Of a stretch of 14,733 nt of DNA, positions 2,144 to 14,733 are shown piece after piece. The first letter of the stretch is position 1. The number at the start of each line of letters is the position of its first letter. The stretch is from a virus: the UHGV virus genome UHGV-1964037; one strand, given 5' to 3'. A program made the translations under genes and the position numbers. The notes beneath the pieces are model-generated. The model was not told the origin of the DNA, searched no databases, and worked only from the letters and a program-made list of their open reading frames with translations.

Positions 2144-4073
2144 TTATGATGATGCCCGGCTTTCGTTAACTTTGACTGTGACCGTATCAAGCAGTACCGG
2201 ATACGTCGCTTTTGCCCCCGTGATATCTGTCAGCGTCAGCGTATCTGCTGTAAAGCCATCATTTGTCCACATCACCAGGTCAAACGCAGACTGCTCTGCA
2301 TCATCAATCACCGGCACCACTTTTTCGCTGTTATTTCCCGCAAAGCGGAAAACAACTGTATGCCAGTTATGGTCAAATGCCCCAAATGTGCCCAGTTGCG
2401 CATTCGACTCCCCCTTGTGGTACATCAGATTCAGATTTGATGCATCCGTCTGAAGGAAGAAGGACGCCAGCATGCTGTTTGCTGTCGCGCCTGACGCCCA
2501 CTGCGACACCGGCCAGTACAGACCAAAGACAAACTGACCGTTAACCAGTTCGACACCCTCCGGGATCTTAAACCGCACGGCAATTTCACCTCCCTTACTG
2601 AGAAGATTTTTTGCCTCCTCCACCGCAACAGTACGGAACATCTTCCAGGAGGTCAGTTTACCCGGCTGTTTTTCCAGTCGCAGCGCCTTCCTGCCACTGT
2701 CATCCGTCACAGTGCCTTTACCACCGGACGCATTCCACTGCTGCTCTGTCCATACACCACTGCCACTGTTCGCATCATATCCGGCCACCATTCTTGTTAC
2801 GGCTTCAGTATGACCGCCTGCAGAAGTACCTGCACCCTGCTGTTGCGTCGGACCCGCAGAGCCAGACTGTGCATCCCCCGTGGAGGCTGGCGTGGTCGCC
2901 AGCGGTGCAGACTGCCCGCTCAGGAACGGCAGCAAACGCCCGGCTCGCACCAGTATCTCTCCTGCCAGCCGATCTGAAACAATGCCTCTTCGCGCCCAGG
3001 AGCTGAAGTGCGTTTTACGATCGGCTGTCGTCCAGTTACCATTACTGCGTGACGCGGCACCATAGTATCCCGCCGTGATAATGTCCGGATCTTCTGACGG
3101 CTCGTTTGTCGGCACATTCGCACCATGCTCATCCGTCATCAACGGCACAAAGTGAATATTCTGCGCCGCCTTGCCTTTATAGCCTCCGTAAACCGCCTCA
3201 TACTGCACTGCATACTTCGCCTTCCAGTCGTACGTGGTGTCACCGCAAATCCACGGGACGCCGGACGTTGTCCCGCCAATACACTGGTCTGCAATATCTG
3301 CCAGGTCTGCACGGTATTTATTTACCATGGCAAGAAAAAGTGCATTGTGCTCTGCATGTCTCCCCGAACTGACATCTTTTTCCCCCTGCATCCAGATCAC
3401 CGACAACAGCACGTTTTTCGGATTTTTCTTCAGGGCTGCACGCGTTCTGCTGACCAGGTCACGATACAACGGTTTATCCACCCCCCACAGGGAAGAGCCC
3501 GCTGTCGCACCCGACGCCTCATTAAACGCGCCCTCTGCTCCCGCAGTAAATCCCGAATCGCCACGTCCACACGGGACAAGAAGGATCCCCGCACGGGCAG
3601 GCATAAACGGCAGCAGTTTTTTGGCCACATGCAGGGCATGCCCCACACAGCCATACTGCCCTTTATTGAGGTCTGCTTTCGGGTGATTCAGATTACTCAC
3701 GTCCTGCACATCATGCAGACAATGGTCTGCAGGAATAATGTCGTTATATGCACAGGCCGCACCGCCCGGTGTCACCGTGCTGCGACGCGCCAGTTGCTTA
3801 ATACGCGGGTCAGGACGATCATACGTATCCGGCAGCGGCAGGCCCCCCCCCAAAAAAAACCAGGTGGGATGGCCCGCCACCATCACCCGACGGTTGCACC
3901 ACCACCGGTGTGGTGACATCACCTTCCGCCGCAATGGCCTGCATCAGGGTATAGGGCGTGATGGCCACCGGACTGCCAAATGGCTGCCACCCCTCCTTCA
4001 GTTTTTGAGTCAGTCGCTCCGCAAGGTCTGACGGCGACGCCGCCCTGACCACGTCATAGTGTTTAAATGCCAT
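2144..4073 (-). pseudogene. nanS-p-like prophage esterase (DUF1737-like N-terminus plus SGNH/SASA-type esterase domain), frameshifted at a homopolymer tract
   Basis: ATG at 4071-4073 with GGGAGG RBS opens an 84-codon frame (MAFKHYDVVRAASPSDLAERLTQKLKEGWQPFGSPV...) that stops at 3819. A second frame continues from the same tract for 596 codons to 2144 and contains GRGDSGF and other esterase-like blocks. The two frames overlap at the C9/A8 run 3843-3859; removing one base joins them into about 642 codons. Size and placement (between Q and S) match nanS-p genes of Stx and Stx-like phages. Family assignment is from memory, not a search. Confidence 0.55.
3843..3859. repeat. adjacent homopolymers C9 and A8 (coding strand T8 G9) at the frameshift site
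   Basis: Plus-strand cccccccccaaaaaaaa at 3843-3859, read directly from the sequence. Confidence 0.95.
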
Positions 4074-4267
4074 GAATCCTCCCGGTCGGGATAATGTTGT
4101 GAGTCAGATGAGGGAACGGGCTGAAGTCCGGAAGTTACAGGACAATGGCAGGAGGAAGACTACAGCCCGCAATACGAAAAAGGCCGCGCTATTGCGCAGA
4201 GTGATTACTGTCGGATATTATTCGCCAGCTGAAATATTACTTCACGTTTTGTTGTTTATTCCTTGCC

Positions 4268-4296
4268 GCCCGCGTCTCCCAGCGCGGGCTTTTTTT
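4268..4296 (+). terminator. terminator-like hairpin plus T7 run on the plus strand, followed by a second GC hairpin (4308-4327)
   Basis: Stem GCCCGCG / CGCGGGC with loop TCTCCCAG, then TTTTTTT. Downstream AGCCCCTC-CGGA-GAGGGGCT hairpin. No U-run follows either hairpin in minus sense. Confidence 0.45.
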
Positions 4297-4353
4297 GTCC
4301 ATAAGAAAGCCCCTCCGGAGAGGGGCTGGAGAGTGGCGCTATGTGCCATTGCA

Positions 4354-4375
4354 TGGTGCCGGGTGCCTCCCGGTG
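4354..4375. repeat. 22-bp element TGGTGCCGGGTGCCTCCCGGTG, with an exact reverse-complement copy at 14559-14580
   Basis: Exact 22/22 match in inverted orientation about 10.2 kb away. The minus-sense reading CACCGGGAGGCACCCGGCACCA holds three GGCACC hexamers and a CCGGG/CCCGG hairpin. Confidence 0.9.
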
Positions 4376-4644
4376 AGTTCAGTATCAGCACCTGAACCCG
4401 CACAGAAAGGATAAGGGTCGGTGACAAAACACCAGTTGCTGATTGCCCCTCCGCACAGGGGGATTCACCATGCCAGTTTCTTTTAACAAACTCCCCGCAA
4501 ACCAGACAACAGTCAACCGCCTGAATTGTGAGGTATTTAAAAATTTCAACGGGTAACTGATACCCTGCTAATCGCCTGATGCTTTCTTTTTCAGCAACGG
4601 GGAAGCAACAACCACCACACCCACCAGCCGCCCATTTACCACAA

Positions 4645-4670
4645 ATAAAAAAGCCTTCACTGCGGAAGGC
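4645..4670 (-). terminator. rho-independent terminator on the minus strand
   Basis: Plus-strand A-run 4645-4652, then GCCTTC-ACTGCG-GAAGGC hairpin (4653-4670). Overlaps the stop codon of the 65-aa ORF. Confidence 0.5.
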
Positions 4671-4853
4671 GTCTGTAACAACCGAACTGATAGTCTGCCA
4701 GACCCGCCATAACCAGCTGGGTCAGTATTAACTGGCAGCGTTCGCGTGAAAGGTAAGTATTCTGCGCTATCTCCCCGACTGTCGCCGGTTCGGTAACGCT
4801 TAATTCATTAAACACCACTCTGGCGGTTTCTGTCATATCCTGCTGTTTTAGCA
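4657..4853 (-). CDS. hypothetical small protein, 65 aa, possibly HTH-like
   Basis: ATG at 4851-4853 with AAGGGA RBS. Product MLKQQDMTETARVVFNELSVTEPATVGEIAQNTYLSRERCQLILTQLVMAGLADYQFGCYRRLPQ. Bracketed by minus-strand terminators on both sides, so it could instead be part of a late leader transcript. Confidence 0.4.
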
Positions 4854-4973
4854 TGTCTTTTTCCCTTTTCCGGTTAACGTGACATACCAATAACTCTTGT
4901 CTAAAAAGCCAGCAAGCTGAAAGACAGGTATTCACCACCAGCACGTTTACTGTACTGATGCGATTTCAGTCAT

Positions 4974-4995
4974 AAAAAACCCGCCAGGCGGCGGG
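4974..4995 (-). terminator. rho-independent terminator on the minus strand, about 60 nt downstream of Q (candidate tR'-like element)
   Basis: Plus-strand A-run 4974-4979, then CCCGCC-AGGC-GGCGGG hairpin (4980-4995). In minus sense the hairpin is followed by UUUUUUAU. Confidence 0.5.
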
Positions 4996-5055
4996 TTTAA
5001 GTTGTGTGGCGTAGTAACCACTCTTAACATACTGACATACTTTTTGCGGACCGCG

Positions 5056-6462: not shown

Positions 6463-7278
6463 TCAATGAACGGTATCGAGCAGCTTTAACAGCTCAGGGA
6501 ATCGGGATTCGAAGAAATGCGGCTGCGTCTCGCGCGGATTTGCAGGACTGGTGATGTTCTTGCCGAACATGCAGCCTTTCGCTGTCAGCGACCAGAATTT
6601 TTTGATGTTGTTAATCGCGGTACGGCTGTATCGTTCGCGTTGTTCAACGATCCCCAGCTTCGCCATCTGGTGATATGCCTGATTAGCCGTCAGGCGGATA
6701 CCATACTGCTTCAGCAGTGCACTCAGCGACAGCGTAGGGCGGCTTGAACCATCTGGCGCATCAGCAGGTGCATCAATGGCATAGATCGGCATAAGTTCAG
6801 GAAGACCAGCTACCTTTGATAATTTCTGGTATGCACCAAGTTTCGAGGAGTTTGACAGATTTAGAGTCTTTGCTGCTGATTCAAGCAGAATGACCCCGGA
6901 TTTAATTTTGTCGGATGTGGTTTCTTCTGGTGATGAATTATGAAGCGCATCAAAAGTACGTATCACTTTTAAGCTGAATGCCGGGCTGATCCACATTGCA
7001 TATGCATAGACCAGCTCTTTACAGACATACGTCCCACCATTGCGCCCCTGAATGGTGATGACAGGAATACTACGGGAATCTCCCGTAGTTTCTTCTTCCA
7101 ATAATTCCACAAGAGCCTTCGTTTCAGGACGACGCATAAACTCGTGAACTTCCAGCGAACGGGAGGAGCGATTCTCACCAGCGGCAAGAAGAGCAGCTTT
7201 CTGAAGGTCGTTAAGACAGTAGTTAGATTCGAAGTACTGGCGCACAGAAACGCCATCAATTACAAGCAACTGATTCAT
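6463..7278 (-). CDS. KilA-N domain protein (putative antirepressor-like DNA-binding protein)
   Basis: ATG at 7276-7278 with GGAG 6 nt upstream. N-terminal region ...VRQYFESNYCLNDLQKAALL...ITIQGRNGGTYVCKELVYAYAMWISPAFSLKVIRTF fits the KilA-N/APSES pattern (G..GGTW/YV...L...A.W.SP.F). A 160-bp intergenic region upstream carries promoter-like hexamers. Confidence 0.7.
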   Translation of the reverse strand: MNQLLVIDGVSVRQYFESNYCLNDLQKAALLAAGENRSSRSLEVHEFMRRPETKALVELLEEETTGDSRSIPVITIQGRNGGTYVCKELVYAYAMWISPAFSLKVIRTFDALHNSSPEETTSDKIKSGVILLESAAKTLNLSNSSKLGAYQKLSKVAGLPELMPIYAIDAPADAPDGSSRPTLSLSALLKQYGIRLTANQAYHQMAKLGIVEQRERYSRTAINNIKKFWSLTAKGCMFGKNITSPANPRETQPHFFESRFPELLKLLDTVH

Positions 7279-7440
7279 TGGTTTCTCCACAAATTTTTAT
7301 CCACGAGCGGGACTGCACTCCCTTTTCGTTGATGCAGGATGAACTTACTGCGATTTTTAATAGTTATCAAGGATACACTCTTCATAAATACAGTATCTTT
7401 AACGAGGTAATACCCAAATTTAGGGTGTTGCTCAATTCCG

Positions 7441-7840: not shown

Positions 7841-8158
7841 TCAGGCCCTCTCATGTAACCAGTGGGCTGCACGCAGCCTGGCGTTTGCCTCACCGGCAAG
7901 CAGGGCGCGGATAATCCCGACCGCCTCGCTGTCGTCGTCCTTCACCGCGGTATGAAGAGTGATACCCCGGGCCACGCCACGCTTTATCGTGATGACACCT
8001 TTTTTCTCCAGTGCGCGAAGATGCTCCACCGCTGCATTCACCGAACGGTATCCCAGCATGGTTGCCACCTCCTGATTGGTTGGCGGGAAGCCACGTTCTT
8101 TCTGATAAGAAATCAGCATATCCAGCACCTGCTGCTGGCATTGAGTTAATGTCGTCAT
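7841..8158 (-). CDS. LexA N-terminal DNA-binding-domain-like protein with no S24 peptidase domain
   Basis: 105-aa product. Residues 3-68 LTQCQQQVLDMLISYQKERGFPPTNQEVATMLGYRSVNAAVEHLRALEKKGVITIKRGVARGITL align closely with the E. coli LexA N-domain [65 protein letters not shown] (from memory). No Ala-Gly/Ser/Lys cleavage module. ATGA overlap with the upstream methyltransferase stop. Confidence 0.7.
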   Translation of the reverse strand: MTTLTQCQQQVLDMLISYQKERGFPPTNQEVATMLGYRSVNAAVEHLRALEKKGVITIKRGVARGITLHTAVKDDDSEAVGIIRALLAGEANARLRAAHWLHERA

Positions 8159-8808
8159 GCCGCCATCTCCCTGACCAGTTTTTCCGCCTGCTGGCGAACC
8201 TGCGCCAGAAATGCCTCACCACATGCCTCAAGTTCATCGCGCCCGATGTAGCTGATTGCCGCTCCCTTCCAGGTCTTGTCGAAAACAGCAATAGCACCAG
8301 CGAAGAAAGCACCTGTTGGCACCTGCTTTTCGTCTTTCGGGATAAACCAGGCTGGCAGTTCAAAACCAATACGCCCGCGAATAAAAGCAATATGATCTGC
8401 ATCTTCCGGCCACCACACTTCGCTGGTGGCCGCTTTGATCAGGAAAACATAGCGCCCGCCTTTATCACGCATGGCACTGGCATGCTTCATGATGTAACGC
8501 ATGCCGGTGATGTATTGTCCCTCATGCTGACTGGCGCGGCTGTACGGGGGATTACCAAAGGCAGCACCTTTAAGCTCCGCAAGACGTTCTGACCAGTCAT
8601 GTGCCAGCGCGTTGTCTTCCGCCGTGTAATACGCGGCACATTTGGCGTTATCACCGTCAGTAAACAGATCCAGAACAAACGGGCCAAACAGGGTGTTAAT
8701 TCCCCAGAAAATGTTGTCCGGCGTGCGCCACTGATCGCCCACTTCCTTCAGTTCATGGGCTGGTTTGTTCCGTAGTTCCACCAGCGCCTGGCAATATTTA
8801 TTACTCAT
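8155..8808 (-). CDS. phage Dam-type DNA N6-adenine methyltransferase
   Basis: 217-aa product with the catalytic NPPY motif (AAFGNPPYS) and a conserved N-terminal WRTPDNIF block typical of the phage Dam family. Start overlaps the upstream stop (TAATG). Confidence 0.7.
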   Translation of the reverse strand: MSNKYCQALVELRNKPAHELKEVGDQWRTPDNIFWGINTLFGPFVLDLFTDGDNAKCAAYYTAEDNALAHDWSERLAELKGAAFGNPPYSRASQHEGQYITGMRYIMKHASAMRDKGGRYVFLIKAATSEVWWPEDADHIAFIRGRIGFELPAWFIPKDEKQVPTGAFFAGAIAVFDKTWKGAAISYIGRDELEACGEAFLAQVRQQAEKLVREMAA

Positions 8809-9296
8809 TAAGCCCCCACGTAATTCCCTGACAGATACCACTCATCACCCGCTACAGCGCGCTTTCTGCTTTTCCGTAAGCACCGCTCACGACGCGCCAG
8901 AAAATTGTTTCGTTCTGGCTGGGAGTGGCTTTCACGGAATGCCGCCATCCACACGGTTGCAGCACGACGGTATAAGCCCCTGGACTCCAGTTCTTCCGCC
9001 TGGCGGGTCAGGCACAAAATCACCCGGGGATCGTTAGTGCCGACATAGAAATTGCGCACAGGTATGGTTTCAAGAACAGGTTGCAGTTTCTCCTCCTGCG
9101 ATATCTCAGCCTGGTGTGGGAAATGTCTGCGTGTTTTCCCTTCACAACAGTGAGCCACACGGCCACTCTGACGTAACTTGCTTGCTGACTGCAGAACGCA
9201 CTGTCGTGAGTAACCAGCAAAAGCATCCGCAATGTCACCTGAAGTACACCCCGGATGGGCTTCAATGAATTTCTGTACATCGTTCATCAGACTCAT
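8808..9296 (-). CDS. PerC-like putative transcriptional regulator, 162 aa, with an N-terminal extension
   Basis: C-terminal half AEELESRGLYRRAATVWMAAFRES...RRERCLRKSRK matches my recollection of the PerC/Pch motif (LE..GLWRRAA..W......R..CLRKSR). ATG at 9294-9296 with GGGGGTG RBS, 2 nt after the upstream stop. Confidence 0.45.
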   Translation of the reverse strand: MSLMNDVQKFIEAHPGCTSGDIADAFAGYSRQCVLQSASKLRQSGRVAHCCEGKTRRHFPHQAEISQEEKLQPVLETIPVRNFYVGTNDPRVILCLTRQAEELESRGLYRRAATVWMAAFRESHSQPERNNFLARRERCLRKSRKRAVAGDEWYLSGNYVGA

Positions 9297-9298
9297 GA

Positions 9299-10282
9299 TC
9301 ACCCCCTGAATCCTGTCGGGATCTGGCTGTAGTCCACGTTGTCGTAACTGGCTTTGAAGTACGGGTCCTCGCGTCTGGCTGCAGATACCGCAGGAACTTC
9401 CCAGGATTCTTCGAAATGACGATCCGGACCAAAGAACGTCGACGCCTGCTTCACGAACTGGGTACAGGTATTTCCAGAGACACGCACCCAGGCGGCATAG
9501 CGTTTCACACCGTCGAGCATGGTTTCAGGTGTCACACCTTCCCTGATTCGGGCTTTCCAGGCTTTAAAAGCGGCGGATTTTGAATTACCACCAGCACGTT
9601 TGGGATATTCCTGCCAGGCCTGTTCAAATTCCGGTGAATATTCCTGTCGGGCAGAACGCGCTGGTGCAGACGCGTCAGCGGATGCGCCAATAGTGTTTTT
9701 AGTCTCCGTTGTAATCTCTGTAGTAATCTCTGTATTTGTATCAACATTCGGCGTATCCCCTGTTCCGTTACGACGTCGGGGGGTGTTCCGTTTTAACGTA
9801 ATAGCTGTATCGCTGATTGCATTATTGCTGTTACTTTCTGGCGAAACAGAAGAAGGTGTGGTGATGGCCGCAATTGCCTGTGGGTTGATCCCGACAAACA
9901 AAATATTGCTACATTTCACCCCATCGAGCATTTCCACCGTGCGTAAATCCAGAGTAATAAACCCGGCATCACGGAGACGCTTCAGCGCATCTGCGGTTTC
10001 CCTTTTCCCGAAACCAAACTGCTCAGCAAACGCCTGGTAGCTTCTTTGCAGTTTGTCGCCCTGAAAACGCTTGCGATATCCCAGCAACGCTCCGGTGTGC
10101 TCATCCCTGACCTCTGTCGGGCGGTACCAGTAAACGATCTCTGAAAGCAGAGCGATAGCCGTCGCATCCGGACGCCCACTGGGTAGTCGAATATATTTCC
10201 ACCAGGTCGCAGGTGTAACATTGCCGGAAATATTAATTTGACCAATAGCCATAACTTCCGGTGTGGGGGCGTAACGGCTCAT
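9299..10282 (-). CDS. putative replication initiation protein (lambda O-like role) with an internal low-complexity linker
   Basis: 327-aa product. N-terminal helical domain (LSEIVYWYRP...LKRLRDAGFITLD), Thr/Ser/Asn-rich linker containing TEITTEITTE, C-terminal domain (EFEQAWQEYPKR...AFKAWKARIREGVTP...). It sits where O sits in lambdoid early operons. The coding sequence contains direct repeats like the O-embedded lambda ori. Family assignment is tentative. Confidence 0.5.
   Translation of the reverse strand: MSRYAPTPEVMAIGQINISGNVTPATWWKYIRLPSGRPDATAIALLSEIVYWYRPTEVRDEHTGALLGYRKRFQGDKLQRSYQAFAEQFGFGKRETADALKRLRDAGFITLDLRTVEMLDGVKCSNILFVGINPQAIAAITTPSSVSPESNSNNAISDTAITLKRNTPRRRNGTGDTPNVDTNTEITTEITTETKNTIGASADASAPARSARQEYSPEFEQAWQEYPKRAGGNSKSAAFKAWKARIREGVTPETMLDGVKRYAAWVRVSGNTCTQFVKQASTFFGPDRHFEESWEVPAVSAARREDPYFKASYDNVDYSQIPTGFRG
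9711..9734. repeat. perfect 12-bp tandem duplication GTAATCTCTGTA x2 inside the O-like gene, with flanking 9-bp direct repeats TGTTCCGTT (9761-9769 and 9784-9792)
   Basis: Read directly from the sequence. The repeats lie in the linker-encoding part of the gene and are followed by an AT-rich stretch (9793-9840). Confidence 0.85.
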
Positions 10283-11944: not shown

Positions 11945-12555
11945 GCGTTAGTTTCTCCACAACCAGAAGCAATCGACGCCACGACGCCCGGAGCTGCACA
12001 CTCGCGGGCGTTACTATTTTCTGGAGCGCAGAAGATTTTGTAGACCAGTGCTGCATGCTCCTGGAGCTTCGAAATTGAGAGGTACAGCTCGTCGTTAATT
12101 GCTGTCTTCTCATGCGGTTCCACTACACCGTCTTCGATTGCTGAACGAATCTGTCTGGAATAACTGCCGATCTGTTCAATGACTTCCAGCAGACGCTGGT
12201 TAATATCGGCGTTGTCCACATCCTCGACGTCAGGAAGAGACACAAAGACGCCATTTGCAGACTGCGCCACAGCGTCAGCAATGAAGTGAGTTCCACCAGC
12301 ACGTTGCAAAATCATTGCCCATCCCAGCGGGAAAATCTGATCGCCATCGGCACGAAGGCGGTTAAATAATGCGTTTTCTGTTACATCCAGCCAGTCAGCT
12401 GCTTCAGCGTAACCACCCGGCAACGCTGCGATAGTTTTTCTGACAGCTTTCACGTACCACTCAGGCTGTTTTTCTACTTTCCAGTGATGCTTACCCACGG
12501 TTAGCCTCATCGTTCTGTGGTTTCTGTTAATCGATTTATCCATTAGATTTTTCAT
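11941..12555 (-). CDS. CII-like early regulatory protein (position-based; possibly phage CP76-type CII family)
   Basis: ORF immediately downstream of cro, about 204 aa from ATG 12553-12555 (alternative ATG 12541-12543). Product ...WKVEKQPEWYVKAVRKTIAALPGGYAEAADWLDVTENALFNRLRADG... Function is inferred mainly from gene order. Confidence 0.35.
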   Translation of the reverse strand: MKNLMDKSINRNHRTMRLTVGKHHWKVEKQPEWYVKAVRKTIAALPGGYAEAADWLDVTENALFNRLRADGDQIFPLGWAMILQRAGGTHFIADAVAQSANGVFVSLPDVEDVDNADINQRLLEVIEQIGSYSRQIRSAIEDGVVEPHEKTAINDELYLSISKLQEHAALVYKIFCAPENSNARECAAPGVVASIASGCGETNA

Positions 12556-12736
12556 AAAGCTCAGGTTTAAATGGCAACCGTCCGCAAGTTCTATATGCAG
12601 CTTCTGCTGCACGTCCTTTTGGAATTAACTGGCCCGGACGGTTTCGCCACTGATAAACGGCTTCAGTTGTTATGCCGAAAAAAGCAGCAACTTTCTCAAT
12701 ACTGCCGAAGTAGCTTTCGATATCGTCAGTTGTCAT
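12536..12736 (-). CDS. cro: Cro-like HTH repressor
   Basis: 66-aa product MTTDDIESYFGSIEKVAAFFGITTEAVYQWRNRPGQLIPKGRAAEAAYRTCGRLPFKPELYEKSNG with the Cro/YdaS-type HTH signature (FFGIT..AVYQW....IP). GGAGGG RBS. Divergent from the repressor gene. Confidence 0.7.
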   Translation of the reverse strand: MTTDDIESYFGSIEKVAAFFGITTEAVYQWRNRPGQLIPKGRAAEAAYRTCGRLPFKPELYEKSNG

Positions 12737-12833
12737 ACGCCCTCCAAACTAAGTTTTATTAGATGCTAATTACAAATCTATCTTTGGTCAATAAAAACTA
12801 AGATTACTTAGCAATTCAAGAAATGGTGCTCCT
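12737..12833. promoter_or_regulatory. divergent cI/cro control region with two 14-bp operator-like palindromes and a candidate PR promoter
   Basis: CTAAGTTTTATTAG at 12749-12762 and CTAAGATTACTTAG at 12798-12811 (inverted CTAAG/CTTAG half-sites). Minus-strand promoter candidate TTGACC (12786-12791), 17 nt, TAGCAT (12763-12768) directed into cro. Confidence 0.55.
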
Positions 12834-13460
12834 ATGGAAACGGTTGGTCAGCGTATAAAAGCTCTGAGAAGAGTTACCGGAACGTCCCAGAAAGAATTGG
12901 GTAAATTTTGTGGAGTAAGCGACGTTGCTGTGGGGTACTGGGAGAAAGACATCAATACCCCTGGTGGGGAGGCACTTTCGAAATTAGCGAAGTTCTTCAA
13001 TACGTCAATAGATTACATTCTTTATGGTGCTGAGTTTGAAGGCAAACTCGTCACAAACATGCGCAGAGTTCCTGTAATATCGTGGGTTCAGGCTGGGCAG
13101 TTTACTGAGTGCAGGGCAGCAGAAGTGTTTAGTGAAGTGGACAAGTGGGTAGATACATCATTAAAGATTGGTGATAACTCATTTGCATTAGAGGTTAAAG
13201 GTGACTCCATGACTAACCCTAATGGCCTCCCAACAATACCAGAAGGCGCAACAGTGATTGTAGATCCAGATGCAGAACCTCGTCATGGAAAAATAGTCAT
13301 CGCTCGACTTGATGGAACAAACGAAGCTACAGTAAAAAAATTAGTCATCGATGGCCCTCAAAAGTTTTTAGTGCCATTAAATCCTCGGTATCCCAACATC
13401 CCTATCAATGGTAATTGCCTTATCATTGGTGTAGTCAAAGGAGTTCAATACGAACTCTAA
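12834..13460 (+). CDS. cI: CI-type prophage repressor (N-terminal HTH plus C-terminal S24 LexA-like autopeptidase domain)
   Basis: 208-aa product. N-terminal HTH (QKELGKFCGVSDVAVGYWEKDINTP), Ala-Gly cleavage site (WVQAGQF), catalytic Ser in GDSM and a Lys-Lys pair (TVKKLV), as in lambda CI/LexA. Confidence 0.85.
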   Translation: METVGQRIKALRRVTGTSQKELGKFCGVSDVAVGYWEKDINTPGGEALSKLAKFFNTSIDYILYGAEFEGKLVTNMRRVPVISWVQAGQFTECRAAEVFSEVDKWVDTSLKIGDNSFALEVKGDSMTNPNGLPTIPEGATVIVDPDAEPRHGKIVIARLDGTNEATVKKLVIDGPQKFLVPLNPRYPNIPINGNCLIIGVVKGVQYEL

Positions 13461-13514
13461 GACCTCTCTTCTCTAACTAAGGCACCGAACTAAGAAAAGT
13501 TTGGTGTTTTCTCT

Positions 13515-13543
13515 TGCCATAATAACTAAGTTAAGTTAGATTT
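13515..13543 (+). promoter_or_regulatory. candidate PL-like promoter overlapping a third operator-like site
   Basis: TTGCCA (13515-13520), 17 nt, TAGATT (13538-13543). The spacer and -10 overlap CTAAGTTAAGTTAG (13526-13539), which matches the OR palindrome CTAAGTTTTATTAG at 11 of 14 positions. Confidence 0.4.
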
Positions 13544-13650
13544 TATATCAAAGATAACGAACAGGCAGGACGCCCACGAAGTAGCCGCCTGGGGCATATA
13601 AAGTCTAGGGTGATTCGTTAGCAACAAAAAAGCGCCCTACAGGACGCTTA

Positions 13651-13662
13651 GCTCTTTAACAA
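13651..13662 (+). promoter_or_regulatory. boxA-like element GCTCTTTAACAA in the leader upstream of the 68-aa ORF
   Basis: Matches the E. coli rrn boxA core (GCTCTTTAACAA, from memory). Preceded by a small hairpin AAGCG..CGCTT (13630-13650) and followed by CAAGT..ACTTG (13677-13694). Confidence 0.4.
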
Positions 13663-13707
13663 TCTGGTCCCCATCAACAAGTAACTGATAACTTGAGGAG
13701 GTGTGAA

Positions 13708-13914
13708 ATGCACAAAACAGAACCCAAAATCGTCGCGCCCGGATACACAAATGAGGAAATTTACGAGTGGATGGCAAAGAAGCTGGCAGCTATAAACCAG
13801 CTTCGTGAAGTGCTGTCTTATCGACAGGAAACAATAGACTCCTTAAAAAAACTGGATCAGGAAATCACGGTTTTATCACAGGATGTTACTTTAGATATTG
13901 TGCAGACAAATTAG
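13708..13914 (+). CDS. hypothetical small protein, 68 aa, predicted helical/coiled-coil
   Basis: ATG at 13708 with strong GAGGAGG RBS 6 nt upstream. Product MHKTEPKIVAPGYTNEEIYEWMAKKLAAINQLREVLSYRQETIDSLKKLDQEITVLSQDVTLDIVQTN. No arginine-rich motif, so not an obvious N homolog. Confidence 0.55.
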   Translation: MHKTEPKIVAPGYTNEEIYEWMAKKLAAINQLREVLSYRQETIDSLKKLDQEITVLSQDVTLDIVQTN

Positions 13915-14320
13915 GATCCCATTCATTTTCGTCAAAATCATCAAAGTGATGAATTTGTGATCTCCAGTCTCGATAATCTAAAAATTTCTGGGCGGTTACG
14001 CTTATTTTATCAAGTGTGAGTTCATCCTGAATTGAAAGAAGAAGTTCATCAAATTTCATCTCATTAATCTGTTTTGGCATCCAGTGATGCTTCATCAGAA
14101 TAAGGTGAACCAGAGCCTTTTTCCCATTCAACTGATTATAGGGAGTGCCGAATTTCTTCCGGTGCTCATGTAAGACAAGGTCCAGAAGAGTAAGTAATGT
14201 TGCCCTTGATTCCACTTTGCTTATTTCGACTGATGACACTACCCCACTGATTTCAATGCCCCGATACTTTCCAACATTTTCACAGTGGGATTTGTACAGC
14301 GTGTAGATATTACCGGACAT
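13886..14320 (-). CDS. hypothetical protein, 144 aa, in AT-rich moron-like DNA next to cI
   Basis: ATG at 14318-14320 with AAGGAAAAG upstream. Product MSGNIYTLYKSHCENVGKYRGIEISGVVSSVEISKV...KFLDYRDWRSQIHHFDDFDENEWDPNLSAQYLK. Region looks about 40% GC against about 52% around it (by-eye estimate). The 3' end overlaps the convergent 68-aa ORF by 29 bp. Confidence 0.55.
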   Translation of the reverse strand: MSGNIYTLYKSHCENVGKYRGIEISGVVSSVEISKVESRATLLTLLDLVLHEHRKKFGTPYNQLNGKKALVHLILMKHHWMPKQINEMKFDELLLSIQDELTLDKISVTAQKFLDYRDWRSQIHHFDDFDENEWDPNLSAQYLK

Positions 14321-14335
14321 TTCTTTTCCTTTTGC

Positions 14336-14387
14336 GTTGTTGGGGATAACCAGATTAACCGAATCCTTGTTGTTGGGGAATAACCAG
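14336..14387. repeat. two direct repeats GTTGTTGGGGA(A)TAACCAG immediately upstream of the 144-aa gene
   Basis: 14336-14353 and 14369-14387, 18 and 19 bp, differing by a single A insertion, start-to-start 33 bp. In minus sense each contains TTATCCCCA or TTATTCCCCA, loosely DnaA-box-like. Confidence 0.85.
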
Positions 14388-14604
14388 GTCCACCTCGCCT
14401 GATGTGGCTAAAAGCAGGCACATAACAGCTAAGTATTTTTAACCAGAGAGAATCCTTAGCGTTGTGGTGAATGCGGCTCAGCGCACGCGGGTTAAGGTTG
14501 AGGCTGACAGTCGACCTTCTGTGGATACCCACCCGTCTGGTGTGCAACCTTCGCCAGGCACCGGGAGGCACCCGGCACCACAACTTTATGCTGTGTGTAG
14601 TCCT

Positions 14605-14651
14605 GGAGGTACCAGTTTGTACCCTTGCTTCCGGCTGGTACCGTCCTTTTT
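14605..14651 (+). terminator. terminator-like hairpin with T5 run on the plus strand
   Basis: GGAGGTACCAG / CTGGTACC(G)TCC stem with a 19-nt loop, followed by TTTTT (14647-14651). Lies about 25 nt downstream of the 22-bp element copy. Confidence 0.4.
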
Positions 14652-14733
14652 ACAAAACAGAGAAGAGCATCACCGGACGACGGGCTCATAACCCAATCCA
14701 TCCGGGCGGCTGCCACCGCAGGTGTTCTTCTCT

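Follow-up and report, generated by a model that had tools for sequence, protein, structure and literature searches.

Gene and translation signals

We analysed a stretch of 14,733 nucleotides (the window) of the virus genome UHGV-1964037, focusing on one minus-strand gene, which a preliminary description made from the letters alone had called a PerC/Pch-like regulator carried in the early operon. With respect to both identity and architecture, the gene is almost certainly a lambdoid-phage member of the PerC family, of the type of YfdN of Escherichia coli K-12. The window comprises the early-right and lysis regions of a lambdoid prophage, reading on the minus strand, and the gene stands between a phage replication protein gene and a Dam methyltransferase gene (Table 1).

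Table 1. The YfdN-type gene, the parts of its product and other features of the window (ORF, open reading frame; aa, residues of the protein; pLDDT, per-residue confidence of the AlphaFold2 model)
Feature	Position	Strand	Remarks
Coding sequence, YfdN-type PerC-family protein	8808..9296	-	162 aa; ATG 9296-9294, stop TAA 8810-8808; from the ORF list and the sequence
Predicted N-terminal winged-helix domain, aa 1-60	9117..9296	-	helix-helix-helix-strand-strand; pLDDT 92-97 (AlphaFold2)
Variable, predicted-disordered linker, aa 61-89	9030..9116	-	pLDDT <50 at aa 64-74 (aa 64-85 in the first model)
Predicted PerC/ANR-like three-helix core, aa 90-145	8862..9029	-	helices aa 90-143; pLDDT 96-98
Conserved C-terminal tail ...EWYLSGNYVGA, aa 146-162	8811..8861	-	low-confidence predicted structure; outside the PerC profile
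Translational-coupling junction with the replication gene	9294..9310	-	replication stop TGA 9301-9299, GTG 9302-9300, AGGGGGTGA, ATG 9296-9294
TAATG stop/start overlap with the Dam methyltransferase gene (8155-8808)	8806..8810	-	from the sequence; RefSeq gives the same Dam start
Phage replication protein gene, 5' neighbour	9299..10282	-	RefSeq 'replication protein' at the identical locus
Dam methyltransferase gene	8155-8808	-	Pfam Dam E=5e-45
105-aa protein, LexA DNA-binding domain only	7841-8158	-	Pfam LexA_DNA_bind E=2.7e-19; without S24 peptidase domain
KilA-N domain protein	6463-7290	-	also matches the PADLOC candidate defence model PDC-S22 (E=7.6e-10, aa 67-122)
Antiterminator Q	5463-5056	-	
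Rha/Ash protein, 382 aa	10796-11944	-	Ash domain aa 117-212, Rha domain aa 222-307; then two small ORFs
cro-like ORF	12736-12536	-	then a CII/CP76-like gene
pR-like sigma-70 promoter TTGACC-17-TAGCAT upstream of cro	12763..12791	-	consensus scan; consensus match only
cI-like S24 repressor gene	12834-13460	+	

The codons of the gene overlap those of both neighbours. At the upstream side the minus-strand letters read ...TTCAGGGGGTGATCATGAGTCTG..., and the replication gene's stop overlaps the start region (GTGA; 4 nt before the ATG). RefSeq annotates the start at an alternative in-frame GTG at 9302 (9302-9300), giving a 164-aa form. We favour the ATG, because distant relatives start with MS[LI] and a Shine-Dalgarno-like AGGGGGTGA lies 5-13 nt upstream of it. 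At the downstream side the letters over the overlap with the Dam gene are ...GGGGCTTAATGAGTAAT.... The database entries P0121 (382 aa, YfdN + Dam), P0027/P0028 and P0040/P0041 present a YfdN-type protein joined to the downstream Dam or RusA as one ORF; these fusion entries are consistent with a 1-nt TAATG overlap that is easily bridged by a frameshift or a sequencing error.

Two-domain architecture

AlphaFold2, supplied with an alignment of 38 sequences, predicted two confident, mutually independent domains (pLDDT >92, pTM 0.47), namely an N-terminal winged helix and a three-helix core, joined by a linker whose length and sequence differ among the relatives. Against K-12 yfdN, the ratio of nonsynonymous to synonymous substitution (dN/dS) was 0.12 in the winged helix and 0.08 in the core; in the linker it was 1.25, on few sites. 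These ratios indicate purifying selection on both domains, not on the linker.

The exhaustive HMMER search over 1.84 billion cluster representatives detected two-domain relatives reaching about 25% identity, and in the alignment of 38 the identity goes down to 23%. The aligned relatives share MS..V..FI..NPG at the start and A..LE..GL.RRAA.VWL.AF......R.....RR..CL in the core, and all of them (38/38) match Pfam PerC. The tail motif W-[YC]-L-[AS]-G-x-[YF]-x-G is kept across the two-domain family and also in some short relatives.

The N-terminal region of about 90 residues, which had been noted as an extension unusual for the family, is real, and it is predicted to be folded, with the confidence given in Table 1 over aa 1-60. 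It is not unusual: it belongs to the standard YfdN architecture, matched over the full length by PHROG 1324 (aa 1-161, E=8.4e-75) and occurring in 2614 of 5426 complete E. coli genomes, with relatives to about 23% identity. Since the 38 aligned relatives share this architecture, the extension is the defining feature of a well-populated subfamily.

According to the structural model, the N-terminal domain has a MarR-like winged-helix fold. The domain of the window protein itself had no Pfam match; among the 38 relatives, MarR_2 was matched by five and Penicillinase_R by four. Foldseek against viral structures returned generic winged-helix matches only. A relative in the PDB was sought by a profile search with the family alignment, which gave only a chance match to SIL1 (E=0.52); this candidate was rejected, which leaves no relative of solved structure.

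Family membership and distribution

The assignment to the PerC family, made in the preliminary description from a sequence motif, was borne out by the Pfam search: PF06069 matched aa 98-151 with 36.9 bits (E=4.4e-9), above the gathering cut-off of 22.6 bits. The motif is present at aa 103-144 (LESRGLYRRAATVW...RRERCLRKSR), far beyond chance. DNA 100% identical to the gene was detected in 11 complete E. coli genomes, where RefSeq names the product 'PerC family transcriptional regulator'. YfdN-type genes were found at >=80% coverage in 2547 of the 2614 carrier genomes, and in 56 phage records, including SfV (orf40), SfII, SfIV, mEp460, ST64B (sb43) and Stx2c/Stx2a phages. The gene is thus an already known, routinely annotated early gene of lambdoid prophages. 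PADLOC gave no defence-system match for the YfdN-type protein.

K-12 YfdN (b2357, in the cryptic prophage CPS-53/KpLE1) is 88% identical to the window protein over 162 aa, with the same length, the same two domains and the same tail; most of the differences fall in the linker (aa 50-80). The neighbours of yfdN, a replication-gene remnant (yfdO) upstream and a methylase remnant (yfdM) downstream, are in the same order as in the window. The K-12 gene lies in a decayed prophage, whereas the window copy lies in an apparently intact early operon.

Position in the early operon

The gene is read on the strand of cro to Q, and no promoter-like or terminator-like site flanks it, in agreement with the early-operon placement proposed before. 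Its GC content (0.53) is that of its neighbours (0.52 and 0.53). Taken with the overlapping codons, this identifies the gene as an integral part of the operon, and we rejected a moron, with a promoter and terminator of its own, as an explanation of its presence. The operon is probably driven by the pR-like promoter, which lies between the cI-like gene and the cro-like ORF.

Five divergent relatives (25-39% identical) were examined with their surroundings. All five lie directly after a phage replication protein gene, usually with overlapping codons, and these replication proteins are of the Phage_lambda_P or the Phg_2220_C type. Where the contig is long enough, a methyltransferase gene (D12 or MT-A70; absent in one locus) follows, and then LexA_DNA_bind and/or RusA. 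In the three loci whose downstream sequence reaches far enough, DUF968 and an antiterminator come next; of the other two contigs, one stops after RusA and one shortly beyond the YfdN-type gene. The position is kept although both flanking gene families change, which argues for a phage-centred role.

Comparison with PerC, PchA and PchE

PerC of enteropathogenic E. coli (EPEC; plasmid pEAF) and PchA-C of enterohaemorrhagic E. coli (EHEC; prophages) share with the window protein the three-helix core, LE.(R/K)GL(Y/W)RRAA..W ... R..CLRK, and all of them are basic and phage- or plasmid-borne. For the comparisons, PchA (104 aa) and PchE (90 aa) of strain Sakai stood in for PerC itself. Both match positions 1-89 of the 90-position PerC profile (149 and 153 bits), while the match of the window protein and of K-12 YfdN, at about 37 bits, is confined to positions 5-58 and does not comprise the whole domain. 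The window protein shares 40% identity with PchA and PchE over about 50 residues, and no further. The canonical members go on with P..P.N...(R/K)(K/Q)A(V/I)(D/N)...MG, which the YfdN type lacks, having the WYLSGNYVGA tail instead. The single-domain format of about 90-105 aa, to which PchA belongs, is likewise not that of the window protein, with its 162 aa and predicted folded N-terminal winged helix. A tblastn search of plasmids with the C-terminal 80 aa returned YfdN-type genes only, and perC of EPEC pEAF was not found at E<=0.01.

The genomic settings differ as well. The pchA gene of Sakai (L012 33366-33680) is isolated and moron-like; it lies on the opposite strand next to insertion sequence (IS) elements and is AT-rich (0.34 GC) on one flank, whereas the window gene is embedded in an operon. 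The PchE-type homologues, which include those of phage-inducible chromosomal islands (PICI) and P4-like satellites (Sakai ECs_1588, EcCIMP1_025), have the same 40% core identity and resemble the window gene in belonging to a mobile element's replication module; in Sp7 the homologue follows primase and ssb. With 90 aa, they match the PerC profile in full (153 bits) but have neither the winged helix nor the WYLSGxYxG tail. In 687 of the 688 records that matched, the pchA-type genes were >=99% identical, and the median genome had three copies; this uniformity is striking beside the yfdN type, with its spread of 90-95%.

Proposed function

We suggest, with a probability of about 0.3-0.45, that the protein is a DNA-tethered PerC/ANR module which modulates silencing or regulator complexes in early phage development. 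The gene belongs to the pR delayed-early operon, and its translation is coupled to that of the replication gene on the upstream side and of the Dam gene on the downstream side. The winged helix would tether the protein to DNA, and the basic core would contact or displace silencing complexes of the H-NS/StpA/Hha type, possibly also AraC-type regulators. As the outcome, silencing or transcription would be modulated for the phage's own programme, and effects on host genes would be a by-product. This mode of action is drawn by analogy from published work on related modules: Pch relieves H-NS/StpA/Hha silencing at LEE1 in the enterocyte effacement locus (LEE) and lowers H-NS occupancy (PMC4764244), and the ANR proteins are three-helix direct binders of AraC-family activators and of H-NS (PMC4983702, PMC5570504). 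The window core resembles the latter in matching the ANR model over positions 5-52 of 54, and 24 of the 38 relatives match it too.

Several points weigh against this proposal. Fukui et al. reported no detectable interaction between Pch and H-NS (PMC4764244), which leaves the way in which the PerC core acts in doubt. The YfdN type lacks the C-terminal third of canonical PerC, and Pch-like activity may therefore not carry over to it. The match to the ANR model NF033650 (NCBIfam), over positions 5-52 of 54, reached 23.2 bits (E=4.4e-5), below the cut-off of 32. The recognition helix of the winged helix is poorly conserved over the family; the domain may therefore serve for contacts with proteins instead of DNA, or recognise sites that differ from phage to phage. 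In the literature on YfdN-type proteins no experiment was found, and YfdN was mentioned only in passing, in a glycogen over-expression screen, as part of a filamentation library region and in a differential fluorescence induction (DFI) fragment induced by urine.

This very common, conserved two-domain subfamily stands where three groups that are poorly understood meet: PerC/Pch, ANR and lambda Ren. A bolder version, which we regard as improbable, is that YfdN-type proteins are phage-intrinsic anti-silencers, whose Ren-like winged helix would tether the ANR/PerC module to phage DNA and so keep the H-NS family off the induced prophage; the stand-alone PerC/Pch activators and ANR anti-activators of pathogens would then be domesticated, truncated forms derived from this early phage gene as the ancestor. 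If true, nucleoid silencing in about half of all E. coli strains would be open to modulation by a prophage-encoded protein that is switched on with the SOS response.

The ANR likeness could also be read without the DNA tether. Like the ANR family (Aar, Rnr), the window core is a three-helix module of about 54 residues with the A/E/A/W/A/R/C pattern; by inspection, A100, E104, A112, W116, A119, R135 and C139 correspond to the seven residues of the published signature (PMC4983702). The ANR model was matched at E<=0.01, over nearly the whole profile, by 24 of the 38 relatives (best E=4e-9), and the PICI protein EcCIMP1_025 silences LEE1 (PMC11773190). The protein might thus be an ANR-like anti-activator or repressor that acts purely via protein contacts with the AraC/XylS family or H-NS and damps virulence or stress regulons of the host. 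The window protein, however, stays below the ANR cut-off. The known ANRs are stand-alone proteins of about 60-70 aa which bind AraC-family partners by protein-protein contacts and have no DNA-binding domain, whereas the window protein has 162 aa in two domains; their AraC partner is encoded alongside, and no AraC-family gene was found among the window ORFs. A conserved winged helix and tail would also be left unexplained, and we consider an ANR-like role unlikely.

The N-terminal domain and the position of the gene recall lambda ren. In lambda, ren (40280-40570) directly follows P (39582-40283) with an overlapping start, in the slot that the window gene occupies. The alignment of the family to that of Ren by hhalign placed residues 1-61 in register with Ren 1-60 (probability 71%, E=3.6e-5). 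The Ren group, PHROG 142, was matched by the window protein (E=0.0047) and by eight of the 38 members (best E=2.4e-5). These similarities suggest that the protein could shield the phage, on infection or induction, from the exclusion system of a resident prophage, as Ren does against Rex, mainly through a Ren-like winged helix. Pairwise BLASTP against Ren was not significant (E=0.54), and a MarR-type PHROG was matched by 22 of the 38 members, with better E-values than the Ren PHROG. Both proteins have a predicted N-terminal MarR-like winged helix, but Ren has 96 aa and lacks the PerC/ANR core, and the similarity is marginal, no better than that to generic MarR-type domains. Because MarR-type models fit the N-terminal domain at least as well, common ancestry with Ren is kept only as a possibility, and we think it rather doubtful that exclusion is the main function.

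The constant place after the replication gene could also point to an accessory factor of replication or methylation, which would work with the co-translated replication protein (origin binding, replisome organisation) or control the adjacent methyltransferase. The YfdN-type gene always adjoins, and is translationally coupled to, genes of replication proteins of two unrelated types, and a DNA methyltransferase gene (Dam, D12 or MT-A70) is next in most loci. Weak Foldseek matches to phage 'replisome organizer' proteins were also detected, but these are generic winged-helix matches with poor TM-scores, and the methyltransferase is absent in one locus. The lambda ren/nin region is dispensable for replication, and the literature on PerC and ANR gives no pointer to replication. 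An accessory function of this kind appears quite improbable.

Relation to ler and the LEE

The suggestion that the gene could link prophage carriage to activation of ler found no support. Of 5426 complete E. coli genomes, 697 carried the LEE marker escN-escV; the number with pchA-type genes, 673, was similar. The totals do not point to co-occurrence of the YfdN type with the LEE (2614 against 697 genomes; totals were compared, not the overlap genome by genome), and from the 2547 genomes with the YfdN type at >=80% coverage it follows that at least 1850 carriers have no LEE. K-12 is a concrete carrier of yfdN.

The published reporter data agree with the genome counts. Only the group 1 Pch proteins (A-C) activate ler; full-length PchE gave less than 2-fold activation and PchD none (PMC5931665). 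Homologues of the PchE/PICI type do not activate the LEE (PMC5931665, PMC11773190), and among the PICI PerC homologues, inactive as activators, one represses LEE1 (PMC11773190). Uhlich et al. deleted yfdN from their K-12 ler::lacZ reporter strain and did not assay it (PMC5931665).

A Pch-like activator of ler/LEE1, which would couple prophage carriage or induction to attaching-effacing virulence, could draw on the shared core motif, the above-threshold Pfam match, the presence of the gene in some Shiga toxin-producing E. coli (STEC) strains and Stx2/Stx2c phages and the fact that Uhlich et al. judged the deletion prudent (PMC5931665), but in view of the partial profile, the many carriers without LEE, the position within an operon and the behaviour of PchD, PchE and the PICI homologues it is very improbable. 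We infer that the gene is not a dedicated activator of ler or the LEE. The YfdN type shares only the core of about 55 residues, lacks the C-terminal third and is about four times commoner than the LEE; a Pfam PerC match in a lambdoid early operon should therefore not be read as a link to the LEE or to virulence.

Other features of the window

Downstream of the Dam gene the order is LexA-DNA-binding-domain-only protein, RusA, KilA-N, DUF968, antiterminator Q, SASA esterase, holin and lysozyme. The small LexA_DNA_bind gene recurs between methylase and RusA in three divergent loci (L005, L008/L009 and L010); its 105-aa product in the window might be an uncleavable mimic of LexA at SOS boxes.

The replication protein upstream had no Pfam match. 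In its gene, a 12-nt unit is repeated in tandem at 9703-9734 on the minus strand (2.7 copies, 90% match). The repeat encodes TEITTEITTE in the middle of the protein and could be iteron-like origin DNA inside an initiator gene, as in lambda O, or a low-complexity linker.

Over 12500-14733, which takes in the immunity region and the sequence to the right of it, the GC content falls to 0.41-0.43, against 0.49-0.60 elsewhere. The ORFs 13886-14320 and 14239-14583 had no Pfam match.

Compared with complete E. coli genomes, the window was covered at best to 92%, with 96% identity. No phage record reached 80% coverage, the best among the matches listed being 58%, and the closest records were Stx2a/Stx2c-converting phages. 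In Stx2a/Stx2c phages, tRNAs and stx sit in the interval between Q and the SASA esterase gene. In the window this interval (3935-5055) has only about 1.1 kb, with no tRNA according to ARAGORN and no room for stxAB, and the window looks like an stx-less relative.

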